DNA of 45,757 bases from Lama guanicoe (GCA_013239625.1 MU053340.1:1-45757), one strand, 5' to 3'; positions 23,098-36,987 are shown, counted from the first letter of the stretch. A program made the numbers and translations. The notes: generated by a model from the sequence alone, not told the origin.

Positions 23098-23283
23098 TCA
23101 GAGCTCCTCATGGACCCGCTCCCCATCTTCATCCGACTTCAGCTTGAGCTCCTCCCCCGTGATCTTGCCGTCCTGGTTGCGGTCCTGATTCTGGAACATG
23201 TCTCCTATGGTTTTCTCAGGGTCCTGGCCAGGCAGGAGACGTCCTTTGCCTTCACTGACTTGAGCCTTGATGAAGGTGGAGAA
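23098..23283 (-). CDS. FKBP10: FKBP10 exon 10 (coding part)
   Basis: [16 protein letters not shown]...[28 protein letters not shown]. Confidence 0.95.
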
Positions 23284-26200
23284 CTGCCAGAGAACCAAGG
23301 AAGGGGAGAATGAGCAAGCACCTGGGCTGAGCGGCTGCAGGTGGCCTTGGCAGGGGCTCCCGGGCGGAGGCCAGCCAGCAAGGACTAAGGAGAAGAGCTG
23401 GCACTGAGTCCTGAGTGGGGCCAGGGCAGAAGGCGTGCATGGGGGTCAGGCAGACGTAGGGGGAACAGGCTGCATGTACCAGAGGACGAGGGACTTAAGG
23501 CGCAGTGACCTGCAGAGGGCAGGAACATGGGTGCAGGCAGGATGGTGGACATGCACTGCATTCTTGCTAGATGCCACCGTGCAAGGTGGCTCCCATTGTG
23601 TGACAGTGTGGGAAGGGTTATTAGAAGGACTGAACTCCTCACTCACCTCCTCCAGGGGGACCTCGCCATCCTTGTTGAGGTCCAAGTCTTCAAACAAGTT
23701 GGCAGGAGGGTCCTCGTGCCACACAAACAGGTAGCCTGTGGGCAGCCCATCCTCTCGGGACACCAGCTCCACCTCAAACAGCAGCACCGCACTGCCAGGG
23801 ACCCCCCGGGCTGGAGGGAGGATGAAGAGGAGAGAAGGGAAGGGTTTGGGTCTGGCTCTGCAGTCTGCCCAGGGTGCTCCCCCACCCATAGGCTTCAATT
23901 TCCCCACCTTGGGCACTAGAGAGTGGGGCATGGGATATTTACAGAACCATATGGAAGGCCTGCCTCACTCTTCCCACCAGCCATCCAGGCAGGCCCCAAG
24001 TGGGCAGGGACAAAGCCATCAGATCAGTCTCTGCCCCTTACCTCCGCTCTCTCCGTGTGCCAGGTGTGGGGGGACCACGATTTGCCGCCTCTCCCCAACA
24101 CACATGTCCTGCAGGCCGATGTCCAGGCCTTGGATCACCTTGTTGGCCCCCAGAGTCGCCTCCTGAGGGGCCCCATAGTCATGGCTGGGGGAAGAGCAGA
24201 TCCCCAGATCAGTGCCCAGCCTCATCCCCTGCCTGTTCACCTCCCACCGTCCTGGGCATGCCCCGTTCCCGAGTCTCTCCTGGTGCTGCCCCAGGGCAGG
24301 GTGCAGGGACCCAGCGGCTCAGAGGTAGGGTCCCCTTCTCTTGCCACTGCCCTGACGTGTGGCCTGGGGGCTCACATCTCTCCCTGCTCCAGTTCTGTCC
24401 AGAGAGTGCAACTAGCAGCTCCCCCTACTGCTTACTTCACCCTCCCTCTGCTCACAGAGTTGGGAATTTTAGCTCCTTATGCTCCCCCGACTCGCTTAGA
24501 TGGGAACTTATGGAGGAAGTAAGAGTTGGGGGTCTGTTAGGACTCCTCACGCCCGGGCCCACCCACCTGCCCAGCCCTGGCCCTGCCCTGGACCCACGAG
24601 GAGAAGAGCCTGGTGCCATCCAGCAGAGAGCAGTTATAGTGGTAGCGGACAAAGTCCCCAGGCTTGGCCGTCTCGTTGCAAGTCTCGGCGGGCCGGGACA
24701 GTGTCTTGATTTCCACTGGATCTGCAGGGTTGTGGAAGTCGATGACGTGGACATCAAAGATCAGCACAGCGGAGCCAGGGATCTTGTCTCCTGGGGCCAG
24801 AGTGGGGGCGTGGATCAGCTCGGCGCTAGGAGGAGCTGCTCAGGCCTCCGTGGAGGCTCCTGACCTTCCCTGCCAGGGGGTTTAAATGAGGATGGGATGG
24901 GATGTTTGTCTACCTAGTCCCCTCTTCTAATATACTCTGGGTGGTGGGGAGGCAGTGGAGGGGAGGGACGGCATGCCAGTTAGAAAGCCCTTTACATACA
25001 CCTTGGAACATCCCAATAATTTACCCTGTTGAGCTACGTGAGCACACTGAGGCCTCCAGCAAAGCTAGGTCTCAAGTCCAGGTGTCTTTGCCTCTAGGGC
25101 TACGCTGTTTCTGGTCTCCCGTAACTGCCCTCCCTCCCCAAACTCAGGTGTCAACTGCCCTTCTCCAGTGTGGAAGGGGGAAGTGGGAGACTGCCCTGGA
25201 GAAAAGGTTGGAGTGCTTGTGGCAGAAGCTGGGTTGGGGGCCAGTTTTTGTGATGAGAGGGGCAGAGCAGTGGCTGGAATCCTCCCCGTCAGGAGGAGCT
25301 GAGGTGCTGGCTTTGGGATTGGGGAACAAGCCTACCAGTCCCGTTCTCCCCGTAGGCGAGGTGGGGGGGGATGGTGATCCTCCGGCGCTCCCCCATGCAC
25401 GAGCCCTGTAGCCCCTGGTCCATGCCGGGGATGATGTAACCCTGCCCCACATAGGTATTGTAGGTGTGGTTGCGGGAGTAGCTGCAATACAAGGTGGGGG
25501 GGCCAGCAAGGGAGTCACAGGGGCCCCGCCCTTCCCAGCAGTTCAGAGCCATCCCCAGCTGCTGCCTGGGGCAACCTCACACCTGGTTCTTTCCTCTTGC
25601 CTCAGCTTCTCTCCTGTCCTCCCAACCCCCACCGTCCTCCTCAGAATCCCCCTGACCTGGAATCAAAGAGGGTGCCATCCATCAGGGAGCCGTTGTAGTG
25701 GTAACGCATGAAGTCCCCGGCTACGGCTCTCCGGACGCAGCCAGGCGGCAGCTCCAGCGTCTCCAGCTGGATGGTGTCCTTTGGGTTGTGGACGTCAATC
25801 AGCAGGACATGGAAGACCAGGGAGGCCTGCGAGGGGATCACAGTCCCTGGGGAAGGGATAGGCTTGAACCATCCAAGTGTAGAGCAAAACCGGGCTTCTT
25901 CCCAACTCAGGAAGGTCTATGTGAGCACCATGCAAAAAGGTGCTAACCCTGCTTTCCTGAGTCCTTTCCCACCCATCAGCAGCCCTTGTTCTTCCCCTGT
26001 GAGGCTGGAGCTAAGGCTTCCCCAGGACCACCACTTGCCCATACTGGGCTTTGTGTGAATCAGAATGAAGCACCACTGCTTAATGAGATGATCACCAAAT
26101 ACTAGGTTTCATGCCTATTTGCCTCCTGGGCTAGATGTCCTTGTACAGTACACAGCCTGAGCAACTGTATATGGCAGCCTGCTTCTAGAGAATCCCTAAA

Positions 26201-34800: not shown

Positions 34801-36987
34801 CATTGAGCCCTCAGAATCCTTCTTACTTTTAAGCACATTAAGCAGCTATGGTTTTTCAATCAGCGTGGAAACTGATACCTGTTCCCGGGTCCTTGAGCTG
34901 GAAAAGGGCCAGAGGACCCAGATCCTAGGAGCTCTGGCTCCTCCACCATCTGGCAGCAAGGCCCAGCTCACCTCACTTTCCTTCCCTCCGCCCAGGAGGC
35001 CATGCTCTACCACAACCAGACAGCTGAGCTGCAGGAGCTGCTGGACTTTGCACACATGTACCTGCAGGCAGATGATGAGGTAAGTGGACCCCTGCCCTAC
35101 AGGGGTGGATGCACGTAGAGACTCCTTAGTCCTCTTCCCGGGGCTGCTGTGCCAGAGCTCAGCCCCAGCTCTTGGCAGTCGGCTATTGGGAAGCAGAGAG
35201 ATTTCACCTGTCCCTTATTTACGCCTGCCCTTCTCTCCCCACTCCATGTTCTCATGTCCACTCTTCTGTCCATGTCTAAATCTTGCTTCTCCTGGACCCA
35301 GCTCGGGTTGACACCTCCTCCAGGAAGCCCTTGCTGCCCGTCCTGACTCTGTCTTCTGGGCTTGCAGTGCCTCCCTGCACTGGAGTTACTTGCAGTCCTC
35401 ATCCATCTCACCCACCCCCTTCTCCACCTAGCCTCCTAGAGGACTGTGCTCCAGGACAAGGGACCAGGGTATTCCCAGCTCTCCCACAGCACCTGGCACA
35501 GAGCTGGGGCTCAGAAACTGAGTTTGAATGAACCAGTGAGTGGATAAATGGATGAATGAATGCAGGACACCAGGAAGGAAGGACCACAGTGTGTTATTAC
35601 ATTGATTCTGAATGAGGGCTTGAGAGCCTGAGTTCTCAGAGGTGTTGCTGCCCAGCACGTATTTATCCATTCCCTCTTTTCTTCGTGCACCCATGTCCCC
35701 CTCATCAAACACAGTGACCGGGTCTGGGCTGGGAGCAGGTAGGCTTTGGTGCTAGCCAGTCTTGGCTCTACCACCTCCCAGCTGGGCAACCTCCAGGCAA
35801 GTCTTAGGTAACCCTCAAACTTCCATTTCTTTATCCGTTGAATGGGGAGAATAATGCCCATCTCACACTGTTGGGCTGAGACTCAAATGAGATCCAGCAT
35901 ATAAAGCACTTAGTATAGAGCTGGCACACAGTAGGTGCTCAAATAACTCTTGTTGCCTGTTCTTTGCCAGACACCATGCTTGGGCCAAGGGTAAATTCAT
36001 GAAAGGCACAGTGTCTTGCCCAAGCAGCTTACTGATGCATGAATCACTATGCAATGGGAGAGGCCATCACAGGGCACTGGAGGTGGCCTCCAGACCAAGC
36101 CAGGGTCATCAGCAAGGACTGCATCCTGGAGCTGATGCCTGGCATTGGAGGGATAAACAAGAGCTATCCAAGGTGTTCCTGGTTGGGAAATAGCATGAGC
36201 AGACAATATTCAAGGACTAGCAGTATTCCCTGGGTATTTATTGCTGAAAAGGTGGGCTGTAGAGAGGGCAATGCTGACAGTAACACTGATTCTCTGCCAA
36301 TGGAGCAATTCACACATCAGTTCAGGGAGGGGGCAGTTTGGGAACAGGACTTTGGGAGAAACCCTCAAATCATTCCTGTGTGAGATCTTGAGGCTGGGAA
36401 GGAGGAGCTTTGGGGATTGATGGGATGGGAGGGCCCCCTTGGCCAGGAAGGGAGCCCACCTGGGTTTGTGCCTGCTGTGACCTGGTTTCTCGTAGATGGA
36501 GCTGGAGGAGACAGAACCACCCATGGAGCCTGAGGACCCACCATCTGATACCGAGCTTGGGGGGAGGGCGACTACGAGGAGAGCATCTATACTGACTGGT
36601 GGCAGGAGCCGGATGCCAAGGGTGATGAGGCTGAGGCCAGTCAGTGACTTCATCTTGGTGGAAGGGTGGGGATGCAGCCTGGGGTGGAGTTTGGAGACAG
36701 CGGGATCCATGCCACCGGCTGCAGACTCTGTGGAGTAGGTGTAATGGGCGTTGGCACGTCTCCTCTGGGGGCCTCTAGCCTGTTAGCAACCCCCTTCCCC
36801 CTTGGTGGAGGACGACGGCATCTTTCCTGAAGCAGAGACCAACTGAGACCTGTTCTTGGGGAGCCTCACTGCTCCCTGCCCCACCTCCCCTGAGGACAGC
36901 ACCCAGGCACCTGTTGGGAACGGAGTGGGGGGCTAATCCCAATGCTCTTTCCTTTCATTTTCAGAGCCAGAGCCTGAACTAGCATGG
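31849..36987 (+). pseudogene. P3H4: P3H4 (SC65/LEPREL4) unprocessed pseudogene
   Basis: Exon blocks 31849-32018, 32160-32483, 33178-33306, 34208-34353, 34996-35079, 36496-36639, 36965-36987 translate to P3H4 peptides ([93 protein letters not shown]). Lesions: ATG>CTG at 31849; stops at 31906, 32214, 32429, 33198, 33297; -1 frameshifts near 32329 and 36560; ~290-nt deletion in exon 1; terminal stop replaced by TGG. Confidence 0.95.

Follow-up and report, generated by a model that had tools for sequence, protein, structure and literature searches.

Probable complementary loss of FKBP10 and P3H4 between old copies of a duplicated block in Lama guanicoe

The window considered here is the whole of one Lama guanicoe contig (MU053340.1:1-45757 of GCA_013239625.1, hereafter C664; 45,757 bases in a 2.05-Gb assembly of 55,231 contigs), in which an intact FKBP10 gene stands head-to-head with a dead P3H4 (SC65) gene. 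Very probably, the window is a member of an old multi-copy segmental duplication with complementary resolution, FKBP10 having been kept on C664 and P3H4 on the paralogous scaffold C6970. This reading is carried by direct observations: paralogy of the blocks, mirror-image lesions, mirror-image ratios of nonsynonymous to synonymous substitution rates (dN/dS), the presence of a unique intact FKBP10 in the assembly, and the same P3H4 pseudogene in Camelus. FKBP10 is intact only in C664, while the sole constrained copy of P3H4, that of C6970, has one in-frame TAA. As the dead P3H4 of the window is a duplicated copy with a constrained paralogue on C6970, it does not represent gene loss.

The two genes of the window

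FKBP10 occupies positions 23098-30040 of the minus strand. Splice-aware reconstruction yielded ten coding exons with a coding sequence (CDS) of 1752 nt and a product of 583 aa, from the ATG at 30040 to the stop codon at 23098-23100; the donors are GT in 9/9 cases and the acceptors AG in 9/9, so that all 18 splice sites are canonical, in agreement with the initial annotation, which had described an intact 1752-nt open reading frame (ORF) and 18 intact splice sites. The translation starts with a hydrophobic, leucine-rich stretch and ends with ERVHEEL. HEEL is a retrieval motif of the endoplasmic reticulum (ER), and both ends of the translation fit an ER-resident protein, the HEEL part being the one strictly tested. 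Exon-wise Pfam scanning revealed four tandem FKBP_C (PF00254) domains, each spread across two exons, with matches in 8/8 pieces of exons 1-8, all above the 21.1-bit cut-off; the N-terminal part of the domain lies in exons 1, 3, 5 and 7, and the central part in exons 2, 4, 6 and 8. When scanned alone, exon 10 matched EF-hand_5 and EF-hand_1 at E-values of 6e-5 and 8e-5, below the curated cut-offs (22.8 vs 25.9 bits), and exon 9 gave no EF-hand match; the 99%-identical Camelus ferus FKBP10 (P0010) is annotated with EF-hand families.

The window protein is identical to P0010 at 578 of 583 residues, one of its exons matches FKBP10 of C. ferus, C. dromedarius and Vicugna pacos at 100% identity, and it coincides with the alpaca isoforms except at their alternative-splice junctions. 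These matches mark the genome as that of a camelid, with alpaca as the nearest among the proteins compared. It is hence an orthologue of FKBP10 and not of FKBP9, an FKBP9-like locus lying elsewhere, on C12518, with 49-69% identity. In the whole-genome protein search, the window copy was the sole intact FKBP10 of the assembly; no second intact one was found, the rest being FKBP9 on C12518 and weak FKBP-family matches.

The P3H4 of the window (31849-36987, plus strand) retains remnants of 8/8 exons and 6/7 introns. Scored against the near-intact paralogue on C6970, it has about 11 lesions in total (Table 1). They include everything listed in the initial annotation, that is, a start loss, five stops, two one-base frameshifts, a large deletion and a stop loss, and, in addition, the exact absence of intron 2. 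With C. bactrianus SC65 the exons share 81-87% identity, vs 44-64% for the CRTAP-like locus on C1007. An open frame with a start, a stop and an unbroken TPR_leprecan region is absent, and hence the gene is a pseudogene. It is a duplicated, non-processed one, lying in a paralogous block with common introns, intergenic DNA and neighbouring genes. A processed origin is ruled out by the six retained introns and by flanks that stay colinear with those of the paralogue for about 43 kb. Nor is it a unitary pseudogene, as the C6970 copy has eight exons, all splice sites and a branch dN/dS of 0.11, with one TAA of doubtful reality.

The 136-bp intron 2 is exactly missing not only in the window, but also in C3131 (at ~12280) and in C3579 (at ~31466), and is present in C6970; the other introns are kept in the copies that lack it. 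Such an absence suggests that the intron was lost in the common ancestor of these copies, either through an old cDNA-mediated conversion or by exact deletion.

Paralogous blocks and the fates of their genes

A 201-base probe from a P3H4 exon matched five other places in the same genome at 75-91% identity, and whole-genome protein searches revealed several FKBP10-P3H4 blocks. In inverted orientation, the window segment 2249-45757 is colinear with C6970:1575627-1620000, part of a 9.26-Mb scaffold (BLAST pieces of 79-94% identity); the duplicated block is thus at least 43 kb long and contains the head-to-head FKBP10-P3H4 pair. A third block, which the small contigs C2834 and C1633 match at 95-99.8% identity, lies at the start of scaffold C3131. 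Parts of the window also match C3131, C2834, C1633, C3579, C5890, C7820, C6403 and C9403 at 84-96%, the copy on C5890 stopping at the window equivalent of ~18236. The Kimura two-parameter (K2P) distances in non-exonic sequence among C664, C6970 and C3131 are 0.074-0.105 (0.074-0.092 between C664 and C6970), and the tree is star-like, with three branches of similar length. Since these distances are far too high for haplotypes, the three sequences are old paralogues.

The lesions of the blocks mirror each other. In C6970, P3H4 consists of eight exons (1341 nt) with an ATG, a TGA and 14/14 GT-AG splice sites, and it is the best P3H4 of the assembly in whole-genome protein searches; apart from a single in-frame TAA at codon 267 of 446 (C6970:1586765-1586763), the gene is intact. 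FKBP10 of the same block has nine frameshifting indels, a TAG at codon 162 and five lost splice sites, amounting to 15 disabling lesions, plus two in-frame indels. In C3131 and C2834, FKBP10 has a changed start codon (ATG>ACG), two CGA>TGA stops and frameshifts, and its homology stops after exon 7; P3H4 of C3131 has several frameshifts and a stop, both genes of the third block being dead. C6970 and C3131 have no FKBP10 lesions in common, so that the damage in the two copies arose independently. For P3H4, the loss of intron 2 is common to C664, C3131 and a partial copy on C3579 (C3579a), and the 1-bp deletion in exon 7 to C664, C3131 and C1633; as these lesions are common to C664 and its sister copies, that P3H4 was dead before the copies separated.

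Branch dN/dS was estimated from the three copies with a majority-rule ancestor (FKBP10, 337 codons; P3H4, 298 codons). For FKBP10, the ratio was 0.32 on the C664 branch (11 nonsynonymous differences), vs 0.86 on C6970 (56) and 1.58 on C3131 (62); for P3H4, it was 0.11 on C6970 (5), vs 1.47 on C664 (37) and 0.58 on C3131 (24.5). The surviving copies appear to be under purifying selection and the lost ones to have evolved neutrally, and this pattern is symmetrical and strong despite the small counts and the crude method of estimation. The view of the initial annotation that FKBP10 stayed under selection while the adjacent P3H4 decayed is borne out both by this ratio, which is not near 1, and by the identity to C. 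ferus given above. Had the window FKBP10 been decaying like its C6970 paralogue, its open frame and 18 splice sites would have survived by chance with a probability of roughly e^-15. The opposite fates are not due to chance, because the paralogous C6970 FKBP10 gained its 15 disabling lesions over the same period.

The same pseudogene is present in Camelus, where it has been read as a gene under several names: 'SC65, partial' (P0201) and 'cartilage-associated protein-like' (P0199) in C. dromedarius, 'uncharacterized LOC141573535' (P0244) in C. bactrianus, and 'SC65' (P0246) in C. ferus. All four models align best to C664 and span the 3-bp deletion of the window pseudogene, its exon-1 deletion junction (P0201 and P0246 among them) and its fusion of exons 2 and 3. 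The contig of P0201 (size 55,652,839) has the same size as that of the dromedary SC65 and FKBP10 models, and the contig of P0244 (60,221,085) has the same size as that of the Bactrian SC65 model. P0246, from a 35.8-kb C. ferus contig, joins pseudogene-type exons 1-3 to functional-type exons 5-6 and, by its composition, is probably a chimeric assembly or model. A new protein encoded by the window pseudogene, an idea arising from P0199 and P0244, was rejected, the same frame having stops at 32214 and 32429.

Because the Camelus models carry the same lesions, the duplications and the exon-1 deletion private to the C664 lineage predate the split between Old and New World camelids, and the duplication event would belong to the camelid stem lineage. 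A comparison of this genome with Camelus provides an independent neutral yardstick: 17/176 residues differ in the pseudogene, 5/583 in FKBP10, and 10/446 plus one gap in the C6970 P3H4. A comparison of K2P between paralogues (~0.09) with the divergence of orthologous pseudogenes (~0.04, a value inferred from the 17/176 residue differences) suggests that the duplication may be roughly twice as old as that split.

These observations could be accounted for as follows. With several copies of the block present, each gene would have been needed once only. The first disabling hits would have fallen by chance on different genes in different copies, as in divergent resolution, and the surviving copy of each gene would then have become indispensable. 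In this way C664 would have kept FKBP10 and lost P3H4, C6970 would have kept P3H4 and lost FKBP10, and the C3131 block, with its near-duplicates C2834 and C1633, would have lost both. FKBP65 and SC65 function is most likely normal in the animal, with different block copies supplying the two proteins. The working FKBP10 and P3H4 would no longer face each other, each facing a dead partner instead.

Two further P3H4 copies were observed on C3579. C3579a (C3579:30,400-32,300) is partial, comprising exons 1-3 only, and mosaic: in BLAST comparisons C664 is the nearest copy to its 5' part (92%), which also has the start loss of C664, and its 3' part is nearer to C6970 (93%) than to C664 (88%). This mosaic structure suggests a possible exchange between copies. 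The other copy (C3579 ~800,600-802,170, minus strand) is chimeric and processed. It begins inside the sequence of a solo long terminal repeat (LTR), at the window equivalent of 31089, crosses the LTR/flank junction by 88 bases, jumps to CDS nt 407 and continues as intronless exons 1-7; intron 7 is kept and is followed by exon 8 and the 3' untranslated region. It looks like a retrocopy of a putative LTR-initiated transcript from a C664-type locus, predating the exon-1 deletion.

The stop codon in the C6970 P3H4 and competing explanations

The TAA of the C6970 P3H4 lies inside a 235-bp tract, C6970:1586618-1586852, which extends from the middle of exon 3 into intron 3 and corresponds to window positions 32377-32611. 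C6970 and C3579a show 0/235 differences in the tract, vs 45/533 in the 3' flank, and C3579a and C664 show 6/235 differences in the tract and 21/503 in the 3' flank. As the distance between C3579a and its sister C664 is about as usual inside the tract, it was C6970 that received pseudogene sequence. The alpaca models P0001 and P0247, which map best to C6970 and otherwise are near-identical to it, read Val..Tyr..Ile where the tract has Ala..stop..Arg, and the replacements Val>Ala and Ile>Arg also differ from the Camelus proteins. The stop at codon 267 is an old pseudogene allele, because the Camelus pseudogene models stop at the same codon or read 'CTA ACC' across it. The tract could have resulted from either a recent pseudogene-to-gene conversion or a collapse of paralogues in the assembly. 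Among the 24 sequencing runs listed, the share of sampled words of the C6970 P3H4 was 0.69-0.72 in DNA runs of four organisms and 0.20-0.42 in RNA runs, which supports nothing on either expression or the TAA. When the exon 3/intron 3 junction was searched as an exact pattern, with any base allowed at the three variable positions, no metagenome contig matched.

That the TAA is real, interlocus gene conversion having put the 235-bp pseudogene patch into the live P3H4, seems to us rather unlikely. If true, a P3H4 (SC65) null allele would occur naturally, in the heterozygous or homozygous state, in the sequenced animal or a part of its population, the duplication family would act as a lasting source of mutations in collagen modification, and under-hydroxylated helical cross-linking lysines would be expected in skin and bone collagen of the affected animals.

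Several points weigh against complementary resolution. The blocks sit on different scaffolds, with JUP on C1600 and an NT5C3B-like gene on C5890. Draft camelid assemblies do yield chimeras at the FKBP10-P3H4 locus, as exemplified by P0246. The dN/dS values come from a majority-rule ancestor and small counts, the value of 0.32 for FKBP10 is not very low, and two of the nine apparent C664-specific FKBP10 replacements proved to be kept ancestral residues. No other open copy of P3H4 exon 3 was found in the assembly by whole-genome DNA and protein searches, and, judging from the assembly, the C6970 P3H4 is not demonstrably functional.

The TAA in an otherwise intact gene and the lack of another open exon 3, together with the position of the stop in a tract identical to C3579a, with C6970 as the acceptor, and the two residues by which the tract departs from the alpaca and Camelus proteins, speak for a P3H4 that is truly non-functional in the species or in this animal, the C6970 copy having been most recently broken at codon 267. 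We consider such a state improbable. The branch dN/dS of 0.11, with five nonsynonymous changes since the duplication, means that any inactivation was very recent; the alpaca RefSeq proteins P0001 and P0247 read Val..Tyr..Ile; and an identical tract is also what paralogue collapse would produce, a chimeric model (P0246) being present in another draft camelid assembly. P3H4 is also named in a Bactrian camel ovary proteome (PMC8698062), so that it has not disappeared from the family altogether. The suggestion in the initial annotation that the species has lost P3H4 thus does not hold in its strong form, as there is a constrained copy on C6970 with eight exons and all splice sites, and survives in a weak form through its one TAA.

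The alternative offered by the same annotation, that a normal FKBP10-P3H4 locus lies elsewhere and the window FKBP10 is an extra copy retained for dosage or for a new function, fits the fact that the locus is duplicated and several FKBP10-like copies are present, but the search for a second FKBP10 retrieved only broken ones. The copies on C6970 (15 disabling lesions), C3131 and C2834 (start loss, two TGA stops, frameshifts) are all dead, and the remaining matches are FKBP9 on C12518 and weak members of the FKBP family. Moreover, the window protein is the annotated FKBP10 of Camelus and alpaca, and there is no acceleration, with 5/583 residues differing from C. ferus. We therefore regard this alternative as very unlikely. 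Even less credible is an artefact in which C664 and C6970 are one locus assembled twice (as haplotypes, by contamination or by misassembly) and the lesions are errors. C664 is indeed a small orphan contig of wholly duplicated sequence, and the assembly is fragmented around the region, but the non-exonic substitution divergence amounts to 7-10%, with many indels and a solo-LTR private to C664; the lesions are reciprocal, multiple and of different kinds; and the independent Camelus annotations have a live SC65 and the window-type pseudogene on one chromosome-sized contig.

Neighbouring features and known systems

Table 1. Positions of the two genes, the P3H4 lesions and the features between the genes in the window.
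Feature	Position	Strand	Remarks
FKBP10 exons 1-4	30040-29793, 27103-26958, 26671-26482, 26363-26218	-	splice-aware reconstruction
FKBP10 exons 5-8	25846-25657, 25481-25336, 24790-24598, 24184-24042	-	splice-aware reconstruction
FKBP10 exons 9-10	23810-23647, 23283-23098	-	splice-aware reconstruction
Intergenic stretch, upstream exon in Camelus pseudogene models	30564-30680	+	39/39 residues as in P0199 (C. dromedarius) and P0244 (C. bactrianus)
Solo-LTR-like insertion, 643 bp	30731-31373	+	TG...CA ends, flanking GAGT direct repeat, AATAAA at 31224
Residual CpG island at the 5' end of dead P3H4	31600-32200	.	observed-to-expected CpG ratio (o/e) 0.66-0.69, GC 0.68-0.73
P3H4 exon remnants 1-4	31849-32018, 32160-32311, 32313-32483, 33178-33306	+	
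P3H4 exon remnants 5-8	34208-34353, 34996-35079, 36496-36639, 36965-36987	+	
P3H4 start loss, ATG>CTG	31849-31851	+	same change in pseudogene copy C3579a
P3H4 in-frame TAG	31906-31908	+	beside a 3-bp deletion at 31907; the deletion also in Camelus models
P3H4 exon-1 deletion, ~316 bp, frameshifting	junction 31996-32000 (at 31998)	+	removes CDS nt ~153-468; gap in BLAST colinearity
P3H4 in-frame stop TAG, codon 182	32214-32216	+	
P3H4 fusion of exon 2 (32160-32311) to exon 3 (32313-32483)	32311-32313	+	exact loss of the 136-bp intron 2
P3H4 1-bp deletion, frameshift, exon 3	32330	+	
P3H4 in-frame stop TGC>TGA, codon 254	32429-32431	+	
P3H4 in-frame stop CAG>TAG, codon 279	33198-33200	+	
P3H4 in-frame stop TAC>TAG, codon 312	33297-33299	+	
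P3H4 1-bp deletion, frameshift, exon 7	36560	+	also in copies C3131 and C1633
P3H4 stop loss, TGA>TGG	36985-36987	+	

The solo-LTR-like insertion between FKBP10 and the dead P3H4 is private to the window copy, being absent from C6970 and C3131 (junctions compared with the empty site of C6970), and has dozens of genomic copies at 86-89% identity. The intergenic stretch used as an upstream exon by the Camelus models is directly followed by a GT (GTAAAA) at 30681, and transcription of the pseudogene in Camelus seems to start from this exon. The stretch may represent a conserved element near the FKBP10 promoter that has been taken over as an exon in a pseudogene transcript. The CpG o/e of the live C6970 P3H4 is 0.79-0.96, higher than at the window P3H4; the residual island of the window may persist since FKBP10 still uses the shared promoter region.

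Outside window positions 23000-37000, none of the 265/265 stop-to-stop ORFs of at least 55 aa matched NT5C3B, KLHL10 or JUP in a Pfam scan, which returned only a lysozyme-family fragment (9659-9847, minus strand) and a sub-threshold LrgA match. The fragment is an exon piece of C-type lysozyme/alpha-lactalbumin (Pfam Lys, E = 8e-10) with a TAA nearby, and has equivalents in the paralogous segments on C6970, C5890 and C7820. UMPH-1 (NT5C3-type) exons were found on C5890 and, beside FKBP9, on C12518. JUP was not found within about 32 kb of the 3' end of the C6970 P3H4. It lies at C1600:3,910,814-3,926,892 (minus strand), where two exons are present twice, ~2.2 kb apart and with identical scores (3921456/3923648 and 3920977/3923169), either by local duplication or as an assembly repeat. 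The region ~4500-6000 of the window is CpG-rich (GC 0.55, CpG o/e 0.62) and more diverged from C6970 (79%) than its surroundings. The 222-aa ORF that it contains at 4889-5554 (plus strand) was rejected as a gene, as its composition, with much R, P, S and A, looks non-coding and Pfam gave no match. Positions 40938-41019 are a run of 82 N, possibly an assembly gap.

The collagen background invoked in the initial annotation, for FKBP65 with LH2 and for SC65/P3H4 with P3H3, LH1 and CypB, agrees with the parts of the literature cited here. According to passages of PMC4847768, SC65/P3H4 and P3H3 form an ER complex affecting LH1, possibly via CypB, and in Sc65-null mice lysine hydroxylation is altered, bone mass is low and the skin is fragile; a passage of PMC5380960 states that the peptidyl-prolyl isomerase activity of FKBP65 potentiates LH2. 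Both P3H4 and FKBP10 are named in Table 2 of the Bactrian camel ovary proteome, in the excerpt of PMC8698062. In the literature on P3H4 or FKBP10 in camel or alpaca, we found no published account of a camelid FKBP10-P3H4 duplication, only unrelated papers and one proteome table.

A dead P3H4 beside an intact FKBP10 resembles a lineage-specific loss of a collagen cross-linking factor, and this false lead is now removed. What takes its place is a clean, datable case of complementary gene loss after segmental duplication, which splits a conserved divergent pair of one pathway and for which the all-dead third copy, the mosaic copy and the retrocopy provide internal neutral controls. These pseudogenes are what has been read as the camelid models 'SC65, partial', 'cartilage-associated protein-like' and 'uncharacterized LOC', which is a warning for annotators; gene-loss screens and variant calling at camelid FKBP10 and P3H4 need paralogue-aware mapping.

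The evolutionary process itself is known, and this case adds an example. The concept of divergent resolution, or reciprocal gene loss, of duplicates reportedly goes back to Lynch and Force, and such loss is documented after whole-genome duplications in yeasts and fishes. As in those cases, each gene survives in one copy, the copies being different, with purifying selection in the survivors and neutral decay in the losers. Unlike them, here the process took place within one genome after a segmental duplication of ~45 kb and involved two adjacent divergent genes of one pathway, so that a head-to-head pair became functionally split, and a third copy lost both genes.

In other mammals, for example at human 17q21.2, the head-to-head FKBP10-P3H4 (LEPREL4) pair is single-copy and flanked by JUP and NT5C3B. 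The camelid blocks resemble this locus in having ten coding exons in FKBP10 and eight exons in P3H4, a divergent arrangement with ~1.2-1.8 kb between the genes, and a CpG island on the P3H4 side; they differ from it in that there are at least three copies, none with both genes intact, and that neither JUP nor NT5C3B is present in the 45.7-kb window.

The stop-bearing tract, in turn, resembles the pseudogene-templated gene conversion of human CYP21A2 by CYP21A1P, as a short tract of a functional-type P3H4, that of C6970, is identical to a pseudogene and brings a stop and two missense changes. It differs from that system in being known from assembly sequence alone, where it is either real or an assembly chimera. 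Were P3H4 truly inactive, the Sc65 (P3h4)-null mouse, as described in passages of PMC4847768, would be the phenotypic model; unlike the gene inactivated in that mouse, the dead P3H4 of the window is a redundant duplicate, and no such phenotype is predicted from it.

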